Below are positions 37,501 to 63,842 of a stretch of 64,000 nucleotides of DNA, piece after piece; within the stretch, counting starts at the first letter, position 1, and each line of letters opens with the position of its first letter. The translations under genes were made by a program, and so were the position numbers. This DNA is from Squalus acanthias. Its lineage: Eukaryota. The notes beneath the pieces are model-generated. The model was not told the origin of the DNA, searched no databases, and was given only the letters and a program-made list of their open reading frames with translations. The DNA is taken from NCBI GenBank assembly GCA_030390025.1, contig JASTWF010000330.1, positions 1 through 64,000 of the forward strand. Reading direction: 5' to 3'.

Positions 37501-40500
37501 CATCTTTAATATTTGTTTCATTGATGATATTATTTATTGTGGATTTAGAATAGATCTTTAATATTTGTCACATCGATACTATTATTTATTGTGGATTTGG
37601 AATAGATCTTTAATATTTGTCTCAGTGTTTGATATTATTTATTATTTATTTGGAATAGATCTTTAATATTTGTCTCATTGATGATATTATTTATTGTGGA
37701 TTTGGAATAGATCTTTTATATTTGTCTCATTGATAATATTATTTATTGTGGATTTGGAATAGATCTTTAATATTTGTCTCATTGGTGATATTATTTATTG
37801 TAGATTTGGAATAGATCTTTAATATTTGTCTCAGTGTTTGATATTATTTATTATGTATTTGGAATAGATCTTTAATATTTGTCTCATTGATGATATTATT
37901 TATTGTGGATTTGGAATAGATCTTTAATATTTGTCTCAGTGTTTGATATTATTTGTTGTGGATTTGGAATAAATCTTTAATATTTGTCCCATTGATGATA
38001 TTATTTGTTGTGGATTTGGAATAGATCTTTAATATTTGTCTGATTCTTTGATATAATTTATTGTGGATTTGGAATAGATCTTTAATATTTGTCCCATTGA
38101 TGATATTATTTATTGTGCATTTGGAATAGATCTTTAATATTTGTCTCATTCTTTGATATAATTTATTGTGGATTTGGAATAGATCTTTAATATTTGTCTC
38201 ATTGATGAATTATTTATTGTGGATTTGCAATAGATCTTTAATATTTGTCTCAGTGTTTGATATTATTTGTTGTGGATTTGGAATAGATCTTTAATATTTG
38301 TCCCATTGATGATATTATTTGTTGTGGATTTGGAATAGATCTTTAATATTTGTCTGATTCTTTGATATAATTTATTGTGGATTTGGAATAGATCTTTAAT
38401 ATTTGTCCCATTGATGATATTATTTATTGTGGATTTGGAATAGATCTTTAATATTTGTCTCATTCTTTGATATAATTTATTGTGGATTTGGAATAGATTT
38501 TTAATATTTGTCTCATTGATGATATTATTTATTGTGGATTTGGAATAGATCTTTAATATTTGTCTCATTGATGATATTATTTATTGTGGATTTGGAATAG
38601 ATCTTTAATATTTGTCTCATTGATGATATTATTTATTGTGGATTTGCAATAGATCTTTAATATTTGTCTCATTCTTTGATATAATTTAATGTGGATTTGC
38701 AATTGAACTTTAATATTTGTCTCATTGATGATATTATTTATTGTGGATTTGGAATAGATCTTTAATATTTGTCTCATTCATGATATTATTTATTGTGGAT
38801 TTGGAATAGATCTTTAATAGTTGTCCCATTGATTATATTATTTATTGTGGATTTGGAATAGATCTTTTATATTTGTCTCATTGATGATATTATTTATTGT
38901 GGATTTGGAATAGATCTTTAATATTTGTCTCATTGATGATATTATTTATTGTGGATTTGGAATAGATCTTTAATATTTGTCTCATTCTTTGATATAATTT
39001 ATTGTGGATTTGGAATAGATCTTTTATATTTGTCTCATTGATGATATTATTTATTGTGGATTTGGAATAGATCTTTAATATTTGTCTCATTCTTTGATAT
39101 AATTTATTGTGGATTTGCAATAGAACTTTAATATTTGTCTCATTCTTTGATATTATTTATTGTGGATTTGGAATAGATCTTTAATATTTGTCCCATTGAT
39201 GATGTTATTTGTTGTGGATTTGGAATAGATCTTTAATATTTGTCTGATTCTTTGATATAATTTATTGTGGATTTGGAATAGATCTTTAATATTTGTCCCA
39301 TTGATGATATTATTTATTGTGGATTTGGAACAGATCTTTAATATTTGTCTCATTCTTTGATATAATTTATTGTGGATTTGGAATAGATCTTTAATATTTG
39401 TCTCATTGATGATATTATTTATTGTGGATTTGGAACAGATCTTTAATATTTGTCTCATTCTTTGATATAATTTGTTGTGGATTTGGAACAGATCTTTAAT
39501 ATTTGTTTCATTGTTTGATATTATTTATTGTGGATTTGGAATAGATCTTTAATATTTGTCTCATTGATGATATTATTTATTGTGGATTTGGAATAGATCT
39601 TTAATATTTGTCTCATTGATGATATTATTTATTGTGGATTTGCAATAGATCTTTAATATTTGTCTCATTCTTTGATATAATTTAATGTGGATTTGCAATT
39701 GAACTTTAATATTTGTCTCATTGATGATATTATTTATTGTGGATTTGAAATAGATCTTTAATATTTGTCTCATTCATGATTTTATTTATTGTGGATTTGG
39801 AATAGATCTTTAATATTTGTCTCATTGATGATATTATTTATTGTGGATTTGGAATAGATCTTTAATATTTGTCTCATTGATGATATTATTTATTGTGGAT
39901 TTGGAATAGATCTTTAATATTTGTCTCATTCTTTGATATAATTTATTGTGGATTTGCAATAGAACTTTAATATTTGTCTCATTGATGATATTATTTATTG
40001 TGGATTTGGAATAGATCTTTAATATTTGTCTCATTGATGATATTATTGATTGTGGATTTGGAATAGATCTTTAATATTTGTCTCATTGATGATATTATTT
40101 ATTGTGGATTTGGAATAGATTTTTAATATTTGTCTCATTGATGATATTAATTATTGTGGATTTGGAATATATCTTTAATATTTGTCTCATTCTTTGATAT
40201 AATTTATTGTGGATTTGCAATAGAACTTTAATATTTGTCTCATTCTTTGATATTATTTATTCTGGATTTGGAATAGATCTTTAATATTTGTCTCATTGAT
40301 GATATTATTTATTGTGGATTTGGAATAGATCTTTAATATTTGTCTCATTCTTTGATATAATTTATTGTGGATTTGGAATAGATCTTTAATATTTGTCTCA
40401 TTGATGATATTATTTATTGTGGATTTGGAATAGATCTTTAAGATCTGTCTCATTGATGTTATTATTTATTGTGGATTTGGAATAGATCTTTAATATTTGT

Positions 40501-43500
40501 CTCAGTATTTGATATTTATTGTGGATTTGGAATAGATCTTTAATATTTGTCCCATTGATTATATTATTTATTGAGGATTTGGAATAGATCTTTAATATTT
40601 GTCTCATTGATGATATTATTTATTGTAGATTTGGAATAGATCATTTATATTTGTCTCATTGATGATATTATTTATTGTGGATTTGGAATAGATCTTTAAT
40701 ATTTGTCTCATTATTTGTAATTATTTATTGTGGATTTGCAATAGATCTTTAATATTTGTCTCATTGATGATATTATTTGTTGTGGATTTGGAACAGATCT
40801 TTAATATTTGTCTGATTCTTTGATATAATTTATTGTGGATTTGCAATAGAACTTTAATATTTGTCTCATTGATGATATTATTTATTGTGGATTTGGAATA
40901 GATCTTTAATATTTGTCTCATTCATGATGTTATTTATTGTGGATTTGGAATAGATCTTTAATATTTGTCTCATTGATGATATTATTTATTGTGGATTTGG
41001 AATAGATCTTTAATATTTGTCTCATTGATGATATTATTTATTGTGGATTTGGAATAGATCTTTAATATTTGTCTCATTGATGATATTATTTATTGTGGAT
41101 TTGGAATAGATCTTTAATATTTGTCTCATTGATGATATTATTTATTGTGGATTTGGAATAGATCTTTAATATTTGGCTCATTGATGATATTATTTATTGA
41201 GGATTTGAAATAGATCTTTAATATTTGTCTCATTGCTGATATTATTGATTGTGGATTTGGAATAGATCTTTAATATTTGTCTCATTGATGATATTATTTC
41301 TTGTGGATTTGGAATAGATCTTTAATATTTGTCTCAATGATGATATTATTTATTGTGGATTTGGAATAGATCTTTAATATTTGTCTCATTGAAGATATTA
41401 TTTATTGTGGATTTGGAATAGATCTTTAATATTTGTCTCATTGATGATATTATTTATTGTGGATTTGGAATAGATCTTTAATATTTGTCTCATTGATGAT
41501 ATTATTTATTGTGGATTTGCAATAGATCTTTAATATTTGTCTCATTCTTTGATATAATTTATTGTGGATTTGGAACAGATCTTTAATATTTGTCTCATTC
41601 TTTGATATAATTTATTGTGGATTTGGAATAGATCTTTAATATTTGTCTCATTGATGATATTATTTATTGTGGATTTGGAACAGATCTTTAATATTTGTCT
41701 CATTCTTTGATATAATTTGTTGTGGATTTGGAACAGATCTTTAATATTTGTTTCATTGTTTGATATTATTTATTGTGGATTTGGAATAGATCTTTAATAT
41801 TTGTCTCATTGATGATATTATTTATTGTGGATTTGGAATAGATCTTTAATATTTGTCTCATTGATGATATTATTTATTGTGGATTTGCAATAGATCTTTA
41901 ATATTTGTCTCATTCTTTGATATAATTTAATGTGGATTTGCAATTGAACTTTAATATTTGTCTCATTGATGATATTATTTATTGTGGATTTGAAATAGAT
42001 CTTTAATATTTGTCTCATTCATGATTTTATTTATTGTGGATTTGGAATAGATCTTTAATATTTGTCTCATTGATGATATTATTTATTGTGGATTTGGAAT
42101 AGATCTTTAATATTTGTCTCATTGATGATATTATTTATTGTGGATTTGGAATAGATCTTTAATATTTGTCTCATTCTTTGATATAATTTATTGTGGATTT
42201 GCAATAGAACTTTAATATTTGTCTCATTGATGATATTATTTATTGTGGATTTGGAATAGATCTTTAATATTTGTCTCATTGATGATATTATTGATTGTGG
42301 ATTTGGAATAGATCTTTAATATTTGTCTCATTGATGATATTATTTATTGTGGATTTGGAATAGATTTTTAATATTTGTCTCATTGATGATATTAATTATT
42401 GTGGATTTGGAATATATCTTTAATATTTGTCTCATTCTTTGATATAATTTATTGTGGATTTGCAATAGAACTTTAATATTTGTCTCATTCTTTGATATTA
42501 TTTATTCTGGATTTGGAATAGATCTTTAATATTTGTCTCATTGATGATATTATTTATTGTGGATTTGGAATAGATCTTTAATATTTGTCTCATTCTTTGA
42601 TATAATTTATTGTGGATTTGGAATAGATCTTTAATATTTGTCTCATTGATGATATTATTTATTGTGGATTTGGAATAGATCTTTAAGATCTGTCTCATTG
42701 ATGTTATTATTTATTGTGGATTTGGAATAGATCTTTAATATTTGTCTCAGTATTTGATATTTATTGTGGATTTGGAATAGATCTTTAATATTTGTCCCAT
42801 TGATTATATTATTTATTGAGGATTTGGAATAGATCTTTAATATTTGTCTCATTGATGATATTATTTATTGTAGATTTGGAATAGATCATTTATATTTGTC
42901 TCATTGATGATATTATTTATTGTGGATTTGGAATAGATCTTTAATATTTGTCTCATTATTTGTAATTATTTATTGTGGATTTGCAATAGATCTTTAATAT
43001 TTGTCTCATTGATGATATTATTTGTTGTTGATTTGGAACAGATCTTTAATATTTGTCTGATTCTTTGATATAATTTATTGTGGATTTGCAATAGAACTTT
43101 AATATTTGTCTCATTGATGATATTATTTATTGTGGATTTGGAATAGATCTTTAATATTTGTCTCATTCATGATGTTATTTATTGTGGATTTGGAATAGAT
43201 CTTTAATATTTGTCTCATTGATGATATTATTTATTGTGGATTTGGAATAGATCTTTAATATTTGTCTCATTGATGATATTATTTATTGTGGATTTGGAAT
43301 AGATCTTTAATATTTGTCTCATTGATGATATTATTTATTGTGGATTTGGAATAGATCTTTAATATTTGTCTCATTGATGATATTATTTATTGTGGATTTG
43401 GAATAGATCTTTAATATTTGGCTCATTGATGATATTATTTATTGAGGATTTGAAATAGATCTTTAATATTTGTCTCATTGCTGATATTATTGATTGTGGA

Positions 43501-46500
43501 TTTGGAATAGATCTTTAATATTTGTCTCATTGATGATATTATTTCTTGTGGATTTGGAATAGATCTTTAATATTTGTCTCAATGATGATATTATTTATTG
43601 TGGATTTGGAACAGTTCTTTAATATTTGTCTCATTCTTTGATATAATTTATTGTGGATTTGGAATAGATCTTTAATATTTGTCTCATTGATGATATTATT
43701 TATTGTGGATTTGGAATAGATCTTTAATATTTGTCTCATTGATGATATTATTTATTGTGGAATTGGAATAGAGCTTTAATATTTGTCTCATTGATGATAT
43801 TATTTATTGTGGATTTGGAATAGATCATTTATATTTGTCTCATTGATGATATTATTTATTGCGGGTTTGGAATAGATCTTTAATATTTGTCTCATTAATT
43901 GTTATTATTTATTGTGGATTTGGAATAGATCTTTAATATTTGTCTCATTATTTGATATTATTTATTGTGGATTTGGAATAGATCTTTAATATTTGTCTCA
44001 TTGATGATATAATTTTTGTGGATTTGGAATAGATCTTTCATATTTGTCTCATTGATGATATTATTTGTTGTGGATTTGGAATAGATCTTTAATATTTGTC
44101 TCATTGTTTGATATTATTTATTGTGGATTTGGAATAGATCTTTAATATTTGTCTCATTGATGATATTATTTATTGTGGATTTGGAATAGATCTTTAATAT
44201 TTGTCCCATTGATGATATTATTAATTGTGGATTTGGAATAGATCTTTAATATTTGTCTCATTGATGATATTATTTATGTGGATGTGGAATAGATCTTTAA
44301 TATTTGTCTCATTGTTGATATTATTTATTGTGGATTTCGAATAGATCTTTAATATTTGTCTCATTGATGATATTATTTATTGTGGATTTGGAATAGATCT
44401 TTAATATTTGTCTCATTGATGATATTATTTATTGTGGATTTGGAACAGTTCTTTAATATTTGTCTCATTCTTTGATATAATTTATTGTAGATTTGCAATA
44501 GAACTTTAATATTTGTCTCATTGATGATATTATTTATTGTGGATTTGGAATAGATCTTTAATATTTGTCTCATTGTTTGATATTATTTATTGTGGATTTG
44601 AAATAGATCTTTAATATTTGTCTCATTGTTTGATATTATTTATTGTGGAATTGGAATAGAGCTTTAATATTTGTCTCATTGATGATATTATTTATTGTGG
44701 ATTTGGAATAGATCTTTAATATTTGTCACATTGTTTGATATTATTTATTGTGGATTTGAAATAGACCTTTAATATTTGTCTCATTGATGTTTTTATTTAT
44801 TGTGGATTTGAAATAGATCTTTAATATTTGTCTCATTGATGATATTATTTATTGTGGATTTGGAATAGATCTTTAATATTTGTCTCATTCATGATATTAT
44901 TTATTGTGGATTTGAAATAGATCTTTAATATTTGTCTCATTGTTGATATTATTTATTGTGGATTTGGAATAGATCTTTAATATTTGTCTCATTGATGATA
45001 TTATTTATTGTGGATTTGGAATAGATCTTTAATATTTGTCTCATTCTTTGATGTTATTTATTGTGGATTTGAAATAGATCTTTAATATTTGTCTCATTGA
45101 TGATATTATTTATTGTGGATTTGGAACAGTTCTTTAATATTTGTCTCATTCTTTGATATAATTTATTGTGGATTTGGAATAGATCTTTAATATTTGTCTC
45201 ATTGATGATATTATTTATTGTGGATTTGGAATAGATCTTTAATATTTGTCTCATTGATGATATTATTTATTGTGGATTTGGAATAGATCTTTAATATTTG
45301 TCTCATTGATGATATTATTTATTGTGGATTTGGAATAGATCTTTAATATTTGTCTCATTGATGATATTATTTATTGTGGATTTGGAATAGATCTTTAATA
45401 TTTGTCTCATTGATGATATTATTTATTGTGGATTTGGAATAGATCTTTAACATTTGTCTCATTATTTGTTATTATTTATTGTGGATTTGGAATAGATCTT
45501 TAACATTTGTCTCATTATTTGTTATTATTTATTGTGGATTTGGAATAGATCTTTAATATTTGTCTCATTATTTGATATTATTTATTGTGGATTTGGAATA
45601 GATCTTTAATATTTGTCTCACTGATGATATTATTTGTTGTGGATTTGGAATAGATCTTAAATATTTGTCTCATTGTTTGATATTATTTATTGTGGATTTG
45701 GAATAGATCTTTAATATTTGTCTCATTGATGATATTATTTATTGTGGATTTGGAATAGATCTTTAATATTTGTCTCATTGATGATATTATTTATGTGGAT
45801 GTGGAATAGATCTTTAATATTTGTCTCATTGTTGATATTATTTCTTGTGGATTTTGAATAGATCTTTAATATTTGTCTCATTGATGATATTATTTATTGT
45901 GGATTTGGAATAGATCTTTAATATTTGTCTCATTGATGATATTATTTATTGTGGATTTGGAATAGATCCTTAATATTTGTCTCATTGATGATATTATTTA
46001 TTGTGGATTTGGAACAGTACTTTCATATTTGTCTCATTCTTTGATATAATTTATTGTGGATTTGCAATAGAACTTTAATATTTGTCTCATTGATGATATT
46101 ATTTATTGTGGATTTGGAATAGATCTTTAATATTTGTCTCATTGTTTGATATTATTTATTGTGGATTTGAAATAGATCTTTAATATTTGTCTCATTGTTT
46201 GATATTATTTATTGTGGAATTGGAATAGAGCTTTAATATTTGTCTCATTGATGATATTATTTATTGTGGATTTGGAATAGATCTTTAATATTTGTCACAT
46301 TGTTTGATATTATTTATTGTGGATTTGAAATAGATCTTTAATATTTGTCTCATTGATGTTTTTATTTATTGTGGATTTGGAACAGTTCTTTAATATTTGT
46401 CTCATTGTTTGATATTATTTATTGTGGATTTGGAATAGATCTTTAATATTTGTCTCATTGATGATATTATTTATTGTGGATTTGGAATAGATCTTTAATA

Positions 46501-47969
46501 TTTGTCCCATTGATGATATTATTTATTGTGGATTTGGAATAGATCTTTAATATTTGTCCCATTGATGATATTATTTATTGTGGATTTGGAATAGTTCTTT
46601 AATATTTGACTCATTGATGATATTATTTATTGTGGATTTGGAATAGATCTTTAATACTTGTTTCATTGATGATATTATTTATTGTGGATTTGGAATAGAT
46701 CTTTAATATTTGACTCATTGATGATATTATTTATTGTGGATTTGGAATAGATCTTTAATATTTGACTCATTGATGATATTATTTATTGTGGATTTGGAAT
46801 AGATCTTTAATATTTGACTCATTCTTTGATATAATTTATTGTGGATTTGGAATAGATCTTTAATATTTGTCTCATTGATGATATTATTTATTGTGGATTT
46901 GGAATAGATCTTTAATATTTGTCTCATTGATATTATTTATTGTGGATTTGGAATATGTCTTTAATATTTGTCTCATTATTTGATATTATTTATTGTGGAT
47001 TTGGAATAGATCTTTAATATTTGTCTCATTATTTGATATTATTTATTGTGGATTTGGAATAGATCTTTAATATTTGTCTCATTGATGATATTATTTATTG
47101 TGGATTTGGAATAGATCTTTAATAGGTGTCTCATTGATGATATTATTTATTGTGGATTTGGAATCGATCTTTAATATTTGTCTCATTGATGATATTATTT
47201 ATTGTGGATTTGGAATAGATCTTTAATATTTGTCACCTTGTTTGATATTATTTATTGTGGATTTGGAATAGATCTTTAATATTTGTCCCATTGATGATAT
47301 TATTTATTGTGGATTTGGAATAGATCTTTAATATTTGACTCATTGATGATATTATTTATTGTGGATTTGGAATAGATCTTTAATACTTGTTTCATTGATG
47401 ATATTATTTATTGTGGATTTGGAATATATCTTTAATATTTGTCTCCTTGTTTGATATTATTTATTGTGGATTTGGAATAGATCTTTTCTATTTGTCTCAT
47501 TGATGATATTATTTATTCTCCTCCTTCTTGGACTCGAGATCATTGAGAAAATGTTATATCTTTAAGATTCTCCATCATCATTGTTCTTTACTTACCCAAA
47601 TATTGTAAATCTTTATATACTTCTTTCTAATATTTAGCTAAATGTATTTGTTCTTTTAATTTAATACTTATATTTATATATTGGTCCATTAAAAAATTAA
47701 TTACATTGATTTATTTGGTTATATTTCCAATTGTAATTTATTTGTTATGATTCCATTCAGTTCTTATTTTTAATTTAAAATGTATATTTCATATACTCAG
47801 TGTTTAGATAGTATATTTAGCAGAGCATTTATATAATGTATTATTGAAATACTATTTACAGTCAGCCTCCAATTTATTTATATATTCAATATTTATAATT
47901 TAATAGTTTTATCAATGAAGTACCAGCAACAGAGAGTTATTCCAAATCTAATTTCACCTGGGGACTGAG

Positions 47970-49837: not shown

Positions 49838-50240
49838 CACTGCACTGGGAGTGTCAGCCCAGCTTTATGTGCTCGAGTCACTGGAGTGGGATTTGAACCC
49901 GCAACCTTCTGACTCAGAGGCGAGTGTGCTACAGCTGACACTGAATTGGACACCATACTCCCGCTGAGGCCGAACCAGTCATTTATAAATGTTCAGCATA
50001 ACTTCTTTGCTTTTGTACTCTATGCCTCTATTTATAAAGCCCAGGATCCCATGTGCTTTTACTAAATAGCTTCATGAACTTGTCATGCCACATTTAAAGA
50101 GTTGTGTACGTTCACCCACAGGTCTCCCTGTTCATCCAACCCCTTTAAAATTGTTTCATTTAGTTTCTAATGTCTCTCCTCACTCTTTCTTCCAAAATGC
50201 ATCACTTCACATTTCTCTGTGTTAAATTTCATCTACCAGG
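49838..50240 (-). mobile_element. DeuSINE head fragment followed by an old CR1 fragment that resumes after the Gypsy insertion
   Basis: 49838-49940 matches 48830-48940; CR1-like ttaaatttcatctaccagg|tgtctgcacatt is split by the Gypsy. Confidence 0.6.
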
Positions 50241-53200
50241 TGTCGTAAGAATGAGCCTTACACGTGGTGAACTTAAAGTAAGCTTTAATCAACTAAAAAG
50301 GTGCTACATACAAAAGAGGTCTTACTCTATGCCTCTCCAGGATCCAACTGATCAGCCCAGTATTTATCCTGGACTAATCACAGGAAGTGATGTAATAAAG
50401 TTCGAGTCACAGGAAGCTGTATTGTGTTACCACATTCTCCCTCCATTTCGTAGCCGCTGGACGAGGGAGAGCCGCACCCGTTTGGGTTCTCGTAGCGGTA
50501 GAGGGCCCCTAGCCCGTTTACCCGCCGCGGGCCGTGGACCAGAGTCCAAGTGATCCAGCCCGCTCTGTGAAGGGTCAGGACGATCCTGACTGTGTACTGG
50601 TGCCCGAACGGGTGTCGGGCAGGGCTGTGGCAGATCCGTTTCCGAGCGTATGGTACGGGGTGGATCGTGGCTGCGCGTGCGAGCCCCGACGGGCTCATAG
50701 TCAGTCTGCCCCAGGTTGGCACGCTGGAGTGAGGTACCAGCCGGCGTCAGATCCAGATCGTGATGAGAGGCACCTGGCGAGCCCAGAGATGTGCCTGGTA
50801 CAATATCATCCCCTGGTGTCCCTCTATGTTTCGGCGGGCAGGGAGCCAGATCCCGCAATGACACGGTAGATTCCCGACCGTCAGGATACCGAATATAGGC
50901 GTAGGTAGGGTTGACGTCAGTGAGCTCAACCTCATCTACCAGGGGGTCATTCTTAGACGCCCGAACATATCTTCGGAGTAGCACTGGTCCCGGTGCAGTC
51001 AGCCATGACGGGAGCGATATCCCATAGGATGAGCGACGCTGAAATCGGAAGAACCGTTCATGAGGCATCGTATTTGTGGCAGTCGAAAGGAGGGACCGTG
51101 TGGAGTGTAATGCGTCTGGAAGTACTGCTTGCCATTGCTGGTTGGGTAGGCCCCGAGATCTCAAAGCCAGACGTACCGCATTCCAGATGATAGCGTTAAA
51201 ACGCTCGACTTGCCCATTCCCGACCGGATGATAAGGCGTCGTTCTGCTGGCAGCAATACCCCATTCCGAGAGATAGGCCTTGAGTTCTCCTGACATAAAA
51301 GAAGGGCCCCGATCCGAATGAACATAGGATGCCATGCCACAGAAAGCAAATACCTGCTCAAGGCAGCTGATAACCGTGGTCGTCAGCATATTGGGGCAGG
51401 GAAAGGCAAATGGAAAACGGGAATACTCATCGACCATGGTCAATAGATAAGTGTTGCGAGTTGAAGAGGGCAACGGCCCCTTAAAATCGATGCTAAGCCG
51501 TTGCATTGGCTGGGTCGCATGTATGAGTATACCACCCGAGGGGCGGAAAAACTGAGGTTTCAATTCCGCACAGACTCTGCAGTCCGAGCACATCTTCTTT
51601 ACATCCCCGGTAGAGAATGGGAGATTTCGGGACCGCACAAAGTGCAGCATGCGAGTAACGCCCGGATGACACAACCCATCATGGATGTCTACGAGCGTAG
51701 AGGGTGCCATGGCGGAGCAGAATGCTCGTGTGAGGGTATCCGGAGCCACATTCTCCTTGCCAGGTCGATAGTGGATGGTGTAACCAAAAGAGGCCAATTC
51801 CAGCCGCCAAAGCTGGATTTTATTATTTTTAATTTTGGTCCGTTTTCGATTATCGAGCATGAAGGCGACCGATCGCTGGTCCGTGATTAAGGTAAAGTGC
51901 TGGCGAGCTAGGAGATGAGTCCACTTCCGTACTGCCTCTATGATGGCTGTAGCTTCTTTCTCGACTGGAGGATAATGTAGCTCAGCCCCTTGAAAAGTCC
52001 TGGACAAAAATGCCACCGGACGACCTTCCTGATTCAGAGTGGCCGAGATCGCCACCTCCGAGGCATCACACTCAACAACAAAAGGAAGACACTCATCGAT
52101 GGAGTGAAGAGCCGCTTTCTCCAACTGTTTTTTCAGGAGGTTAAAGGCTGCAACAGCCGCTGTGTCTAGTGGGAATGTGCTGGCCTTCAGTAGAGGTTGG
52201 ATTCAGTCCGAGAAGTTAGGAATCCATTTAGCATAGTATGCAAACAGGCCGAGGGCCCGGCGCAAGGAGGCCGGATTCTTAAGTGGCGGGAGTTCTTGGA
52301 GTGGGCGAAGCCTTTCAGGGTCAGGTTTAATGATGCCATTGCCCACACATTAGCCAAGGATGTTGACGGTTGGTTGTGACTCAATGGATTTAGCCGCATT
52401 TAATGTCAAATTACGGTGCTGGAGTGCATCCCAAAATCGTTGGAGATTGGCGTCATGTTCCCGCTGATTGCGACCTGCGACAGTAATATTGTCCAGATAA
52501 GGAAACGTATCCTTTAAGTCTTCCTGTTTGACCAGGTCATCCATTGCTCGCTGGAAGACAGCCACTCCATTAGTGACCCCAAAGGGGAGGCGACGAAATT
52601 GATACAGCCGTCCATTGGCTTCAAAGGCCGTATACTGCTTGTCTGAGACCTTCAAGGGTACCTGATGATAGGCACTTTTCAGATCATATGTTGAGAACAC
52701 CGTGTACTCAGCCAGTTTATTAACCATATCATCGATGCGCGGCAATGGGTATGCGTCCAAGTCCGTATATTGATTGATGGTCTGTGAATAGTCAATGCAC
52801 AGCCGTTTCTTGTGAGGTTGTAGAGGGTTCTTAACAATAACGACCTGGGCGCGCCATGGCGACGAACAAGGCTCGATGATATCCTCTGCTAAAAGCCGAG
52901 AAATCTCAGCCGCAATAAAAGACTGGTCTTCCTGACTGAAACGTCGTGACTTTGTTATAATCGGTTTGCATCGAGGAGGGATACTGGTAAACAGTGAGGG
53001 TTCATCCAGTGAAGCTGCTGACAATGCACAGAACGGTAATCGAGGTCGTATATTAGAAATAGTGAGTTCAGGTTTGGATCCGCCGAACTCAATGGTGAGC
53101 TTCTTATGCTGCTTTTGAAAATCTAGCCCTAAGATAAGATCACTACATAAGTCCTTGAGCACCGAAAGCCGGGTGGAGGGATACCTGTGACCATTAAGTG

Positions 53201-54649
53201 TTATTTCAACCATACAAAAGCCAGAAATTCTGGTATTAAGTGATGACTGAGCCATCGCAATTGACTGGTCCGATGGGAAAACATGTAGCTTTAACTCTGC
53301 AACAATCTGTTCCCTAATGAAACTATCAGTGCTACCTGAGTCAATTAAGGCATCTAAAGTATGTCCATTAATTGATGCTTTTGTAGCTGCATGGAATAGG
53401 TTCTGAGGACAAGCAGCTGTAATTGGTGTCGTTGCACAAAGAGTGGCTGAAACTCTAGGTGTGTTTCTTCGAGAGAAAACCCGAGAGGAAGCACGATAGA
53501 TTTTAGCCGGAACATCTTGATAGGCCCTTACCGGGGCAGTTCGGTAGGACTTAGCTTGATAAGCCCTCGTAGAGGCTCTTGATAGGCAAACCTTTGCAAA
53601 ATGACCCTTTTTGTTGCAATGACTGCAAAACGCATTGCGAGCAGAGCAGAATTTCCGAGGGTGAAACTCATCACCACAAAAGAAGCATTTCTTAGATTGC
53701 CAAGAGGCTGCCACAGTGGGGTCATCATCCTCTTCATCAGTGAAGTCATCAGATTGATCGTCAGGGATAAAGTCCTCCCCAATAGAGTTCACCTGTGGCC
53801 TCTTAAATTGCCTGACTGTAGTTAAGGCAGCAGACCGAGGTCTGGGCACTGTATAAAGGTCTGTATTTCTTTTTGCCAGATCTAGAGAGCAAGCCATGTC
53901 ATAAGCTCTCTGAAGCTCAAGTGTCTTACTTTCCAGTAGACGCTGGCGTATAAATGGGGAGGCAAGCCCGCAGATGAAAGCATCACGGATCATTTCTTCA
54001 CGGTACAGCTCAGCTGAGGCCGCCTGAAAGTTACAGTCCATACTAAGTCTGCGAAGCTCTTGGAGGAATTTATCAATGGATTCCTCCGGCCCTTGTTGGG
54101 CTGTAGCTAGTAGATGTCTGGCATAGACCTCATTCGGTGTCTTAGTATATAGTCTTTTAAGCATCCGAATTGCCTCCTCGTAACTGCCCCATTCCTCGAC
54201 ATACTGAAATACATTCGGGGTGACACAGTTGATGAGTATCCGCAACTTTGAGTCATCATCAGCCTTGCAATATTCGAGAAAATTGTCAAACGTGCGATAC
54301 CGGTGTTTCCACACCTTACCGGCTGCTGGGGTGTTTGGGTCCAAGTCAAGACGCGATGGTTTAAGGATGTTTTCCATGATGGGTGATTCCCTGGATCCTT
54401 AGTTCCGAGTTCGTCCAAAAAGTTTGAGTGCGAAGTTTTTCAAAGTTGATTAAATTGTCGTAAGAATGAGCCTTACGCGTGGTGAACTTAAAGTAAGCTT
54501 TAATCAACTAAAAAGGTGCTACATACAAAAGAGGTCTTACTCTATGCCTCTCCAGGATCCAACTGATCAGCCCAGTATTTATCCTGGACTAATCACAGGA
54601 AGTGATGTAATAAAGTTCGAGTCACAGGAAGCTGTATTGTGTTACCACA
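50241..54649 (-). mobile_element. Full-length young Ty3/Gypsy LTR retrotransposon (Mag-like), 4409 bp
   Basis: 194-bp LTRs at 50241-50434 and 54456-54649 (TG..CA, one mismatch seen), 5-bp TSD CCAGG, PPT ggagggagaa. Confidence 0.97.
50427..54377 (-). pseudogene. Single gag-pol frame (about 1316 aa) with two nonsense codons (52350-52352 TAA, 52203-52205 TGA)
   Basis: Two CCHC knuckles, protease LIDSGS, RT (YDLKSAYHQ, LPFG, YLDN), RNase H (CDAS, EKEA, TDQ), integrase HHCC + DDE; both track ORFs share one frame. Confidence 0.93.
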
Positions 54650-54734
54650 CCAGGTGTCTGCACATTTCACCAGTCTGACATTTCGGACAAAAACTCATGA
54701 TATTTCTCATTGATCATAGCGTGAAAAACCTTCT

Positions 54735-55225
54735 GCACTCAGTGTTCATCTGAGGACTGAGATACCCCATGATATCTCTCACTGACCATCGAGTGTACCC
54801 CACCATCTGCACTCAATGTTCACCTGGGGACTGAGATACCCCATGATATCTCTCACTGACCATCGAGTGTCCCTCACCATCTGCACTTAGTGTTCACCTG
54901 TGGACTGAGATAATCCATGATATCTCTCACTGCCCATCGAGTTTGTCATCATCTGCTCTCAGTGTTCACCTGGGGACTGAGATACCCCATGATATCTCTC
55001 ACTGACCATCGAGTGTACCTCACCATCTATACTCAATGTTCACCTAGGGACTGAGATACCCCATGATACCTCTCACTGCCCATCGAGTGTACCTCACCAT
55101 CTATACTCAGTGTTCACCTGGGGACTGAGATAACCCATGATATCTCTCACTGCCCATCGAGTGTACCCCACAACCTGAACTCAGTGTTCACCTGGGGACT
55201 GAGATACCTCGTGATATCTCTCACC
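54735..55225. repeat. 73/74-bp intronic minisatellite, array 1
   Basis: cagtgttcacctggggactgagataccccatgatatctctcactgaccatcgagtg.. units. Confidence 0.95.
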
Positions 55226-58081: not shown

Positions 58082-58284
58082 GTAACGTATAGGGAAAATT
58101 AGAGATAAACTAGTCGATAAGCGAGGAATAAATGTACAAAAGAGACCGAAGTGTGAGTGCAAGAATGGAAACTGCTGGGAGTCCGGTATTATCAGTCAGA
58201 GGAATGTGGCAGGGAGGGGATACAGGGAAAGGGGAACAATCGGACTCTAAAGAGAGAAACACAGAGACTAATGGAGAAAACACT

Positions 58285-58760
58285 GGATAGAGGGGGAATA
58301 TAGAACGGGAACAGAGAGTAAAGGGAGATACACGGGATAGGGGGTAATATAGAATGGAAAGAGAGAGTAAGGGGAGATACCCGGGATAGAGGGGAATACA
58401 GAACCGGGACAGGGATGAAAGGGGCATACCCGGGATAGAGGGAAATATAGAACGTGGACAGAGTGTAAAGGGAGATACCCGGGATAGAGGGGAATATAGA
58501 ACGGGGACAGAGAGTAAAGGGAGTTAACCGGGATAGAGGGGAAAATAAAACGGGGACAGAGAGTAAAGGGAGATACCCGGGATAGAGGGGAATATAGAAT
58601 GGGGACAGAGAGTAAAGGGAGTTACCCAGGATAGAGGGAAATATAAAACGGGGACAGAGAGTAAAGGGAGAGACCCGGGATAGAGGGAATATAGAATGGG
58701 GACAGAGAGTAAAGGGAGATACCCGGGATAGAGGGAATATAGAATGTGGTCAGGGAGTAA
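58285..58760. repeat. 48/49-bp purine-rich intronic repeat, about 10 copies
   Basis: gggatagaggggaatatagaacggggacagagagtaaagggagataccc. Confidence 0.95.
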
Positions 58761-58861
58761 AGGATGGGCCCCAGTTTCCAGCACTCTCTGCCGGTCCCAG
58801 TCTTTCTATCAGTTAATAAGGTCCATCAGTTCAGGGGCTGACTCTGTGATTGTTGTTTCAG

Positions 58862-58938
58862 TTCTGGTGGATGGAAGATTCCGGAGACTGAAGTCCCATT
58901 GGATCACTGCTCCACAAACTCTCCAGGCTGGTTAAAGG
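58862..58938 (+). CDS. D10C module 2, exon b
   Basis: Identical to 55936-56012. Confidence 0.9.
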
Positions 58939-59031
58939 GTACTTTCAGACTTGCTAATATCAGATTTACATTCACGGTCCCGCACTGTTCACATCGGTTA
59001 CATTCGTCAATATTTACAATCCTCATTTCAG

Positions 59032-59196
59032 ATGGTCATCCCACCGTGGGAGAGGCAGAAGTAACGAGGACAGTTTGTTTTCCCTGGGGTAGAAATTCCT
59101 GCAACAGGACCCTGGAGATAAAGGTCAAAAACTGCTCCAGTTACTTTGTTTATGAGTTGAAGCCGGCACCCCTCTGTAATGGTGCTTATTGCACAG
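59032..59196 (+). CDS. D10C module 2, exon c
   Basis: Identical to 56106-56270. Confidence 0.92.
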
Positions 59197-59324
59197 GTAT
59201 GTTGCTGTTTATAACTGACCCAGAGGGGTGACTATGGGATGTCCCATTTCATCAACAGAAATAACAAAGTTACAATGGGGACACAAGGAATAAAAGAACT
59301 GAAGCACATCGTTTATTTGTTATT

Positions 59325-60720
59325 GTGTTTTAGGGGATTGGGATGCAGCGACTGAGGGGCGTGGTTATTGTGTTTTAGGGGATTGGGATGCAGCGACTGA
59401 GGGGCGTGGTTATTGTGTTTTAGGGGATTGGGATGCATCGACTGAGGGTCGTGGTTATTGTGTTTTACTGACTATCGAGTGTCCCTCACCATCTGCACTC
59501 AGTGTTCCCCTGGGGACTGAGATACCCCATGATATCTCCCACTGACCATCGAGTGTCCCTCACCATCTGTACTCAATGTTCACCTGGGGACTGAAATACC
59601 CCATGATATCTCTCACTGCCCATCGAGTTTGCCATATTCTGCTCTCAGTGTTCACTTGGGGACTGAGATACCGCATGATATCTCTCACTGACCATTGAGT
59701 GTCCCTCACCATCTGCAATCAGTGTTCACTTGGGGACTGAGATACCCCATGATATCTCTCACTGCCCATCGAGTGTCCCTCATCATCTGCACTCAGTGTT
59801 CACCTGGGGACTGAGATACCCCATGATATCTCTCACTGCCCATCGAGTGTCCCTCACCATCTGCACTCAGTGTTCACCTGGGGACTGAGATACCCCATGA
59901 TATCTCTCACTGACCATCGAGTGTCCCCCACCATCTGTACTCAGTGTTCACCTGGGGACTGAGATACCCCATGATATCTCTCACTGACCATCGAGTTTGC
60001 CATCATCTGCTCTCAGTGTTCACTTGGGGACTGAGATACCCCATGATATCTCTCACTGACCATCGAGTGTACCTCACCATCTATACTCAATGTTCACCTG
60101 GGGACCGAGATACCCCATGATATCTCTCACTGACCATCGAGTTTGCCATATTCTGCTCTCAGTGTTCACTTGGGGACTGAGATACCGCATGATATCTCTC
60201 ACTGACCATTGAGTGTCCCTCACCATCTGCAATCAGTGTTCACTTGGGGACTGAGATACACCGTGATATCTCTCACTGCCCATCGAGTGTCCCTCACCAT
60301 CTGCACTCAGTGTTCACCTGGGGACTGAGATACCCCATGATATCTCTCACTGACCATCGAGTGTCCCTCACCAGCTGTACTCAGTGTTCACCTGGGGACT
60401 GAGATACCCCATGATATCTCTCACTGACCATCGAGTGACCTTCACCATCTGTACTCAGTGTTCACCTGGGGACTGAGATACTCCATGATATCTCTCACTG
60501 ACCATCGAGTGTCCCCACCATCTATACTCAGTGTTCACCTGGGGACTGAGATAGCCCATGATATCTCTCACTGCCCATCGAGTTTGTCATCATCTGCTCT
60601 CAGTGTTCACCTGGGGACTGAGATACCCCATGATATCTCTCACTGATCTTCGAGTGTCCCCCACAATCTGAACTCAGTGTTCACCTGGGGACTGAGATAC
60701 CTCGTGATATCTCTCACCTG
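59325..60720. repeat. 45-bp repeat (3 copies) followed by 73/74-bp minisatellite array 3
   Basis: Directly visible periods. Confidence 0.95.
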
Positions 60721-60846
60721 GTTTAGAGAAGGAGGAATGTGTCCAAATTTAACTTGGGGAATTTTCTAGCAGGGTGGAGAGTGAACCTGAGTTTATTGGT
60801 ACTTCGGGGGGTAGAAGCCCACATTAACCACCTTTCTGTTACTCAG

Positions 60847-60991
60847 TCCCAGGCTCCGCACTCACTGACCCGTGTGTAAATCACACAGTCCTGGACCAGT
60901 CCTGGAGGAGCACGGATTGTAGTGGGACTGAATGCTCTGGCGAGCTGAAGTGTGATAACAATCTTGACTACGGATGGTACAGATTTCAAAG
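60847..60991 (+). CDS. D10C module 3, exon a
   Basis: PGSALTDPCVNHTVLDQSWRSTDCSGTECSGELKCDNNLDYGWYRFQ; splice sites intact. Confidence 0.92.
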
Positions 60992-61194
60992 GTAACTTCA
61001 AGGGATAATTAGAGATAAACTAGTTGATAAGCGTGGAGTAAATGTACAAAAGATACCCAAGTGTGAGTGCAAGAATGGAAACTGCTGGGAGACCGGGATT
61101 ATCAGCCAGAACAATGAGGCAGGGAGTGGATACAGGGAAAGGGGAACAATCGGACCCTACAGAGAGAAACACAGAGAATAAAAGTGGGAAACAT

Positions 61195-63665
61195 TGGATA
61201 GAGGGAATAGAGAACGGGAACAGAGAGTAAAGGGAGATACCCGGGATAGAGGGGATATAGAACGGGCACAGAGAGTAAAGGGAGATACCCGGGATAGAGG
61301 GAATATAGAATGGGCACAGAGATTAAAGGGAGATACCTGGGATAGAGAGGAATATGGAACGGGGACAGAGAGTAAAGGGAGATACCCGGGATAGAGGGAA
61401 TATAGAACGGGGACAGTGAGTAAAGGGAGATACCCGGGATAGAGGGGAATATAGAACGGGGACAAAGAGTAAAGGGAGATAACCGGGATAGAGGGGAATA
61501 TAGAACGGCGACAGAGAGTAAAGGGAGATACCCGGGATAGAGGGAATATAGAACGGGGACATTGAGTAAAGGGAGATACACAGGATAGAGGGGAATATAG
61601 AACGGTGACAGAGAGTAAAGGGTGATACCCGGGATAGAGGGGAATATAGAACGGGGACAGAGAGTAAAGGGAGATACCCGGGATAGAGGGAATATAGAAC
61701 GGTGACAGAGAGTAAAGGGAGATACCCGGGATAGAGGGGAATATAGAACGGTGCCAGAGAGTAAAGGGAGATACTCGGTATAGAGCGGATTATAGAACGG
61801 GGACAGAGTATAAAGGGAGATACCCGGGATAGAGGGGAATATAGAATGGGAAAAGAGAGTAAAGGGAGATACCCGGGATAGAGGGGAATATAGAACGTGG
61901 ACAGAGAGTAAAGGGAGATTACCGGGATAGAGGGGATATAGAACGGGGACAGAGAGTAAAGGGAGATACCCGGGATAGAGGGGAATATAGAACGGTGACA
62001 GAGAGTAAAGGGAGATACCCGGGATAGAGGGGAATATAGAACGGGGACAGAGAGTAAAGGGAGATACCCGGGATAGAGGGGAATATAGAACGGGGACAGA
62101 GAATAAAGGGAGATACCCGGAATAGAGGGGAATATAGAACGGGAAAAGAGAGTAAAGGGAGATACCCGGGATAGAGGGGAATATAGAACGGGGACAGAGA
62201 GTAAAGGGAGATACCCGGGATAGAGGGAATATAGAACGGTCACAGAGAGTAAAGGGGGATACCCGGGATAGAGGGGAATATAGAACGGGGACTGAGAGTA
62301 AAGGGAGATACACGGGATAGAGGGGAATATAGAACGGAGACACAGATTAGAGGGAGATACCCGGGATAGAGGGGAATATAGAACGGGGAGAGAGATTAAA
62401 GGGAGATACCCGTGATAGAGGGGGATATAGAACAGAGACAGAGAGTAAAGGGAGATACCGGGGATAGAGGTGGGAAAAAAACCGGGACAGAGAGTAAAGG
62501 GAGATACCCGGGATAGAGGGGAAAATAGAACGGGGACAGAGTGTAAAGGCAGATACCCGGGATAGAGGGGAATATAGAACGGGGACAGAGAGTAAAGGGA
62601 GATACCCGGAATAGAGGGGAATATTGAAAGGAGACAGAGAGTAAAGGGAGATACCCGGGATAGAGGGGAATATTGAAAGGAGACAGAGAGTAAAGGGAGA
62701 TACCCGGGATAGAGGGAAATATAGAACGGGGACAGAGAGTAAAGGGAGATACCCGGGACAGAGGGGAATATAGAACGGGGACAGAGAGTAAAGGGGGATA
62801 CCAGGGATCGAGGGAATATAGAACGGGGACAGAGAGTAAAGGGAGATACCCGGGATAGAGGGGAATATAGAACGTGGACAGAGAGTAAAGGGAGAAACCC
62901 AGGATAGAGGGGAATATATTACGGGGACATAGAGTAAAGGGAGATACCCGGGATAGAGGGAATATAGAACGGAGACAGAGAGTAAAGGGAGATACCCGGG
63001 ATGGAGGGGAATATAGAACGGTGACAGAGAGTAAAGGGTGATACCCGGGATAGAGTGGAATATAGAACGGGGACAGAGACTAAAGGGAGATACCTGGGAT
63101 AGAGGGAATATAGAACGGGGACAGAGAGTAAAGGGAGATACCCGGGATAGAGGGGAATATAGAACGGGGACAGAGAGTAAAGGGAGATACCCGGGATAGA
63201 GGGGAATATAGAACGGGGACAGAGAGTAAAGGGAGATACCCGGGATAGAGGGGAATATAGAACGGGGACAGAGAGTAAAGGGAGATAACCGGGATAGAGG
63301 GGAATATAGAACGGGGACAGAGAGTAAAGGGAGATAACCGGGATAGAGGGGAATATAGAACGGGGACAGAGAGTAAAGGGAGATACCCGGAATAGAGGGA
63401 ATATAGAACGGGGATAGAGTTTAAAGGGAGATACCCGGGATAGAGGGTATATAGAACGGGGACAGAGAGTAAAGGGAGATACCCGGGATAGAGGGGAATA
63501 TAGAACGGGGACAGAGAGTAAAGGGAGATACCCGGGATAGGGGAAGATAGAACGGGGACAGAGAGTAAAGGGAGATACCCGGGATAGGGGAATATAGAAC
63601 GGGGACAGAGAGTAAAGGGAGATACCCGGGATAGAGGGGAATATAGAATGTGGACAGGGAGTAAA
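61195..63665. repeat. 48/49-bp purine-rich intronic repeat, about 50 copies
   Basis: Period measured from 63121 to 63170. Confidence 0.97.
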
Positions 63666-63765
63666 GGACGGGCCCCAGTTTCGAGCACTCTCTGCCGGTC
63701 CCAGTCTTTCTGTCAGTTAATAAGGTTCATCAGTTCAGGGGCTGACTCTGTGATTGTTGTTTCAG

Positions 63766-63842
63766 TTCTGGTGGATGGAAGATTCCGGAGACTGTTGTCC
63801 CAATCCTTCACTGCTCCACAAAATCTCCAGGCTGGTTAAACG
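63766..63842 (+). CDS. D10C module 3, exon b
   Basis: SGGWKIPETVVPILHCSTKSPGWLN; splice sites intact. Confidence 0.9.

Follow-up and report, generated by a model that had tools for sequence, protein, structure and literature searches.

The Ty3/Gypsy LTR retrotransposon at 54649-50241 on the minus strand of the window (the whole 64,000-nt stretch of Squalus acanthias DNA analyzed here) probably primes its reverse transcription with a segment of its own LTR, cut after an AAA, in place of a tRNA. All features of the element given below lie on the minus strand. The primer-binding position, TTTAATCAACT (54444..54454), lacks a TGG and is the complement of an arm, AGTTGATTAAA (54499..54509), inside the 5' LTR. 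This arm is the predicted self-primer end and includes the ATTAAA hexamer 54504-54499, and the cut is predicted between 54499 and 54498, after the AAA and before a GC. A single spacer nucleotide (A, 54455) separates the CA of the LTR from TTTAATCAACT, and the two segments (54454-54444 and 54509-54499) are exact complements that pair over exactly 11 nt. The initial annotation had described an 11-nt self-complement one nucleotide past the 5' LTR and no tRNA-type TGG site, and its coordinates were reproduced exactly; when the LTR was shuffled with its dinucleotides preserved, 21 of 100,000 trials reached at least 11 nt at a start offset of 0–3. A 70-nt segment folds with the duplex (z = -3.49; 1 of 200 shuffles was as good), and when longer flanks are added the duplex is kept in the minimum-energy fold with z values that are not significant (-0.86 and -0.35). 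Contigs of related runs reveal a subfamily with one extra arm base at window 54508, which would lengthen the duplex to 12 bp.

The element spans 4,409 bp, and its TG..CA LTRs, target duplication, polypurine tract, and order of protease, RT, RNase H, and integrase are those of Ty3/Gypsy. The 5' LTR (54456..54649) and the 3' LTR (50241..50434) are both 194 bp long, differ by one mismatch, and are flanked by a 5-bp target-site duplication, CCTGG (54650..54654 on the left and 50236..50240 on the right). The polypurine tract GGAGGGAGAA is located at 50435..50444. A single frame encodes gag, protease, RT, RNase H, and integrase and is broken by two in-frame stops: the gag-protease-RT part (52350..54377) ends at the first of these, and the RNase H-integrase part (50427..52202) continues in the same frame after the second (52205-52203) and terminates within the first bases of the 3' LTR. 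The 3' LTR holds a second copy of the arm, with no partner downstream of it. A domain scan of the element detected no chromodomain and no Tf2-type SH3 at the integrase C terminus, in agreement with its earlier description as chromodomain-less, and Rfam gave no match anywhere in the element.

The window element is a young copy of its family. Its own genome (G000, 3.7 Gb) gave 40 scored matches to the window family, all near-identical, and 3,191 places in that genome bear both arms exactly, spread over three families. In the surroundings of the element, a 74-bp tandem array adjoins its left end (window 54728-55224 and beyond), a 52-bp satellite occupies window 40000-47517, and dispersed repeats of about 49 bp, 45 bp, and longer lie to its right (window 58246-63808). 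One family copy (L195:4480-4560) has 74 extra nt at its 3' end, where the 37-nt start of the LTR is duplicated and a second purine tract precedes the 3' LTR. Three 5' junctions spaced by 4,247 nt (G000 C1:566513, 570760, and 575007) suggest a tandem array of elements.

No host tRNA matching the primer site was found in a partial survey of tRNA genes (15 loci scanned, 14 of which held tRNAs, Lys and Cys only); the tRNA search called for by the initial annotation was thus negative over the Lys and Cys loci. The 11-mer followed by a B box within 8–38 nt occurs once in the genome, at a locus that is not a tRNA. Throughout the clade to which the element belongs, the primer sites lack TGG, and their sequences differ between families. 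In three other Gypsy elements, two of which have a TGG site, the complement in the LTR is merely 5–7 nt. A further Gypsy element with two frames and a MYND finger at the start of pol (L174:1243-1300) shows neither a TGG directly after the LTR nor an LTR complement. A primer made by splicing was rejected for the clade: each arm is an unbroken stretch of 10–22 nt in the genomic LTR, the window LTR has a GT..AG span of only ~33 nt, and contigs that cover the LTR show no joint. A conserved RCC after the arm was considered as a cut signal and discounted, as the TGG-primed element L193 also has AATAAAGC.

The pairing was followed across the relatives of the element. There are 511 longer homologs, and those among the 120 listed are mostly frames of ~1,200 aa; the named proteins among these 120 are from insect, nematode, tunicate, and ctenophore. 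The arms were read from metagenome contigs and from G000. A gag start was seen at 28 metagenome loci; two of these were too short and two lacked a recognizable LTR, and the remaining 24, together with eight further loci, gave 32 scored elements. The LTR end was fixed by comparison of the 5' and 3' LTRs in 15 of these and set by eye in 17. In this set, in which the placing of LTR ends by eye leans towards the pairing pattern, the cognate duplex has a median length of 13 bp versus 5 for 992 non-cognate pairs. Pairing over at least 11 nt is seen in 11 of the 15 elements with a comparison-fixed LTR end; the remaining four comprise one that reaches 17 once G-U pairs are counted, two whose matching arm is found in the 3' LTR, and one with a primer site altered by a single substitution. 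When the offset was left free, 20 of 23 duplexes of at least 10 bp began 1 nt after the CA, a figure that counts one element whose LTR end had been placed 1 nt too far.

Each of 26 families was represented by its best-matching copy, a choice that likewise leans towards the pattern. At positions 1–11 of these representatives, 267 of 286 cells are paired, against a permutation mean of 192.7 (0 of 20,000 permutations were as high), and at positions 12–16 the count is 88 of 130 against 49 in permutations. The 26 families hold 20 distinct 11-mers. Seventeen families are perfect and two (L064 and L078) pair at only 6 of 11 positions; the duplex is usually 13–16 bp long and reaches 22 bp. On the RT tree, in which 17 rows have arms, one side of the duplex changes 42 times, and in 39 of these cases the partner changes with it, compared with 7–18 when the partners are slid. 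The primer position pairs with the LTR arm of its own element and covaries with it clade-wide. Compensatory changes between the primer site and the LTR, proposed at the outset as a check, are therefore found across families as well as within the host genome. Viral contigs searched with the clade alignment gave no match, and the protein atlas returned unnamed gag-like clusters only. As separate observations, one relative has an 18-nt direct repeat in U3 and right after its primer site (L022:2150-2330), and animal-type Gypsy elements occur in contigs filed as bacterial MAGs (L162-L186), probably as host contamination.

Within the host genome, the covariation can be seen at a single pair. The arm and primer-site states are T-A in 3,191 copies, C-G in 24, C-A in 3, T-G in 12, and G-G in 1. 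The primer-site base is G in 24 of 27 copies with C in the LTR versus 12 of 3,203 copies with T in the LTR. The C-G pair, a switch from U-A, is confined to one subfamily, which represents one event. Among the mismatched copies whose 3' LTR was found, 9 of 12 hold the pairing base there, and the mismatched states are mostly changes after insertion. A G-U intermediate on the route to the C-G subfamily was rejected, because six of eight T/G copies with a 3' LTR have C in that LTR, which marks CpG decay after insertion. This decay is asymmetric in the C-G subfamily, with LTR C changed to T in nine copies and primer-site G changed to A in none.

Rearranged insertions provide footprints of reverse transcription. 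A search pattern for read-through, which encoded one sister family only, found four places that correspond to three independent insertions (L265-L272; G000 C2:121178886, C25:14935030, and C36:26981 and 33024, the one on C36 being tandemly duplicated). Each has a perfect 5-bp duplication, and in each the U5 and the A are followed directly by the complement of the arm and then by U3. Two of the three chimeras extend past U3 and the polypurine tract to internal sequence of the 3' part (297 and 1,625 nt in total) and then switch back, which identifies them as template-switch products and not simple inversions. In the third, a minus-sense U5-R piece ends within 1 nt of the predicted cut between AAA and GC, with no microhomology to the next piece. 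This end, a single event, is consistent with an RNA template that ended at the cut. The read-through can also stem from mis-annealing of a 13-nt plus-strand end to any R arm. Given this alternative, the chimeras support engagement of the arm and do not fix which R supplies the primer.

Here, we propose a priming mechanism based on the pairing, the chimeras, and analogy with Tf1. The arm in R would anneal to the primer site over 11–22 bp, and the RNA would be cut just after the AAA of the arm, probably by the RNase H of the element as in Tf1. From the resulting 3' end, RT may then copy the 1-nt spacer, U5, and what is left of R. By analogy with Tf1, the minus-strand DNA would jump to the 3' R and the plus strand would copy the primer back; such copy-back would keep the two arms complementary. 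In this host, the primer is predicted to be an internal segment of R at the end of a longer RNA, with the start site upstream. The initial annotation had suggested Tf1-like self-priming. The tRNA-independent, covarying pairing with the LTR supports that idea, and the part of it that placed the primer at the very front of the RNA is made doubtful by the TATA-like box, which predicts a start upstream of the arm.

The TATA-like box GATAAATA at 54576..54583 has a homolog in two sister families, where it takes the perfect form TATAAATA. In all three host families, the box lies 74–92 nt upstream of arm position -11, and a pyrimidine-purine step is found about 30 nt past it. The position of the box and this step together predict a start near 54553 in the window family, and the predicted RNA start in the host families is 44–62 nt upstream of the arm (44 in the window family and about 60 in the sisters). 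The duplex persists in the fold of a longer RNA that begins at the predicted upstream site. The start at 54509 that had been predicted from the initiator-like sequence is doubtful on this prediction. The TATA box itself sits in a short inverted repeat (window 54572-54587; LTRs of L194 and L197) whose flanks vary from family to family, CCAG..CTGG in one case and GAG..CTC in the other.

These data bear on the source of the primer. That the internal primer comes from the 5' R of an RNA with an upstream start is a reading we hold tentatively, at somewhat below an even chance. A strict Tf1 geometry, with the start at or beside the arm (54509) and the first 11–13 nt of the RNA as the primer, would account for the window duplex of exactly 11 nt and for the composition of the arms, in which G stands at position -10 in 22 of 26 and either A or T at position -11 in 24 of 26. 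Such a composition would be expected of an initiator-like motif, to which the conserved G at -10 could belong. In 21 of 23 non-host families, no TATA-like box was found in the 130 nt upstream, so that a TATA-less start at the arm is possible for these families. This geometry is nevertheless unlikely, given the TATA box far upstream in the three host families and pairing that extends in most families to positions 13–16 and at most to 22 bp. A TATA-like box at 25–35 nt before the arm was found in none of the 26 families. We consider it similarly improbable that the primer is supplied by the arm of the 3' R, either in the same RNA or in a second one packaged with it. The two chimeras that continue through U3 and the polypurine tract imply a template contiguous with the 3' part of the RNA, as priming from the 3' R would give, and an upstream start would leave 44–62 nt of R for strand transfer; identical chimeras follow, however, from the mis-annealing described above, and the minus-sense piece of the third chimera ends at the predicted cut, which is what cleavage within the 5' R would give. 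The sampled copies included none able to separate a 5' from a 3' origin.

The duplex might alternatively serve only to hide the poly(A) signal of the 5' LTR, with priming left to a protein, a host RNA, or a tRNA fragment. In 13 of 26 families, the last bases of the arm are ATTAAA or AATAAA, and in the window element the ATTAAA lies within the arm and the partner occurs solely after the 5' LTR; to this extent, the earlier suggestion that the duplex suppresses premature polyadenylation is plausible. It does not apply generally, because the hexamer is non-canonical in the other 13 families (in some by decay) and a canonical signal lies outside the duplex, uncovered in the loop, in 4 of 26, so that occlusion of the 5' poly(A) signal can be no more than a secondary role, a possible by-product of the duplex. 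As its only function it is very unlikely, since the partner lies exactly where a primer site belongs, the element has no second primer site, and 20 different 11-mers cannot match one host RNA. The partial tRNA survey (Lys and Cys loci) and a presumed resemblance of the arm to a tRNA D-loop motif are what could be said for chance complementarity in AT-rich sequence or for a host tRNA half that matches the site. Against this stand the shuffles, the cognate median, the excess of paired cells, the coincident changes on the tree, and the single genomic 11-mer with a B box at a non-tRNA locus. The covariation refutes this reading, save for the case that every family has a site fitting a tRNA of its own host, and we regard it as extremely improbable.

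The U5 hairpin CGTAAG/CTTACG (54459..54477), noted at the outset between the two arms, is present in the window element and in the host families and is not conserved clade-wide (3 of 24 families versus 2.7 expected). A small hairpin is predicted directly after the arm (54486..54498); a hairpin at this place is found in 6 of 24 families versus 1.0 expected, four of the six being close relatives. A third duplex of the type in the Tf1 'pretzel', between leader and LTR, is at chance level (mean rank 0.52 over 24 families), and folding of the loop is only marginal (p = 0.048).

The RT and RNase H tree (68 rows, LG+G4) contained 30 rows of the clade and 17 rows of chromoviruses; the latter were picked by domains, host, and similarity to L241 (fungal-type, with a chromodomain), and Tf1 and sushi themselves are absent from the tree. 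Retrovirus-like loci were mostly what the SH3_Tf2 search returned, and three of them were used only as outgroup; those from the host genome (L187-L190 and L199) have a second RNase H and an MLV-type integrase C terminus. The clade has 100/100 support on a long stem and the chromoviruses separate at 99/96, with a weakly ordered backbone. Joining of the clade with the four vertebrate sushi-like rows was rejected (p-AU 0.012). A sister relationship to 12 fungal, vertebrate, and protist chromovirus rows (p-AU 0.234) was not rejected, nor was grouping with Mag-type elements (p-AU 0.44), the label 'Mag-type' being given from a primer-site motif. The RT is thus placed outside the known Tf1/sushi group, on a separate branch, as the initial annotation had supposed. 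Since nesting with the sushi-like rows is rejected, the clade is not a member of Tf1/sushi, and a single ancient origin of self-priming stays compatible with the tree. The label 'Mag-like' for the clade is unproven. Chromodomain and Tf2-type SH3 are absent in all five relatives scanned and both are present in the control L241, and the domain lists of the 120 listed homologs contain neither. A search of the own genome for a sushi-type gag gave no match, with controls likewise silent. We also put forward, with less than even confidence, that this pan-animal clade evolved self-priming independently of Tf1/sushi and in a different form. Priming would rely on a piece from within R that ends on the poly(A) hexamer and is cut from an RNA with its start well upstream (or is supplied by the 3' R), one duplex would both make the primer and gate polyadenylation, and copy-back would keep the arms in step.

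In the cited accounts of Tf1, a segment of ~11 nt within the LTR base-pairs with the bases that follow the 5' LTR and an RNase H cut makes the primer (PMC7175516), the primer region is described as a 'pretzel' of three duplexes (PMC10085805), and about half of the cDNAs keep the copied primer site (PMC11042837). Self-priming is given in the literature, as far as the cited portions go, for Tf1/sushi, Tcn1, and the plant TAR copia elements (PMC3601003, PMC6934838, PMC6238403, PMC4600332, PMC2864245, PMC5341516, PMC7175516, PMC9873768, PMC3286476, PMC6317226, PMC5006619, PMC11042837, and PMC10085805). Tf1/Tf2 of Schizosaccharomyces pombe, Tj1, Tosmo/Tcry, and the Tf1/sushi group of chromoviruses are described as having, like the present clade, no tRNA site and an LTR pairing of ~11 nt (PMC7175516, PMC4600332, and PMC10085805); the group and the clade also share, according to these portions, the Ty3/Gypsy domain order and a predicted cut at the edge of the duplex. 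Unlike Tf1/sushi, the clade has no chromodomain or Tf2-type SH3, its RT/RNase H identity to chromoviruses is about 29%, its arm ends in a poly(A)-type hexamer, and its duplex is usually longer than 11 bp. It further differs from Tf1 in the RNA start, predicted upstream of the arm in this host, and in the third 'pretzel' duplex, which is at chance. For the Tcn1 chromoviruses and the plant Ty1/copia elements TAR, Houba, and Osr-1, the cited part of PMC6317226 gives self-priming as predicted from sequence, as here, so that self-priming had already been proposed outside the strict Tf1/sushi group; these are other lineages, including those of plants, whereas the clade consists of non-chromodomain Gypsy elements of animals. 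Fungal GalEa Copia, bivalve TRIMs, and Dictyostelium Skipper likewise have no canonical primer site, but are described in the cited portions with inverted repeats in the internal region or no LTR complement (PMC6934838 and PMC5006619), whereas the partner in the clade lies in the LTR and covaries.

The Mag lineage (Mag and SURL) and the Cigr-1 clade resemble the present clade in short LTRs, a 5-bp duplication, compactness, and the absence of a chromodomain. Cigr-1, with a single reading frame of about 1,210 codons, is our best guess for the published name of the clade; the tree held no named Cigr-1 or Mag reference sequence. A tRNA site that starts with TGG, expected of the Mag lineage, is absent from the clade, and the Mag-type group of the host, with a TGG site in the one copy seen (L193), forms a separate branch with about 28% identity to the clade. 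In Culex, the primer sites of Mag elements are those for tRNA-Leu, -Ser, or -Arg (PMC3286476), and Cigr-1 is placed under Mag in the supplement of PMC6238403. No report of self-priming in a non-chromodomain animal Gypsy clade was found in the literature covered; older Tf1 and Cigr-1 papers, Butler 2001, Repbase, and GyDB lie outside that scope and may mention the pairing.

Of the self-priming elements in the sources cited, Tf1 has experimental proof, whereas its chromovirus relatives and one plant copia lineage are predicted cases. Annotation tools based on primer-binding sites would overlook or misassign elements of the present type. With a primer that lies inside R and shares bases with the poly(A) signal, if this is correct, priming would be coupled to 3'-end formation, an arrangement not found described in these sources. 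If true, self-priming would be extended to a large non-chromodomain clade of animals with more than 3,000 copies in the host genome. It would predict escape of these elements from control by tRNA fragments, and would bear on whether tRNA-free priming is ancestral or has arisen repeatedly.
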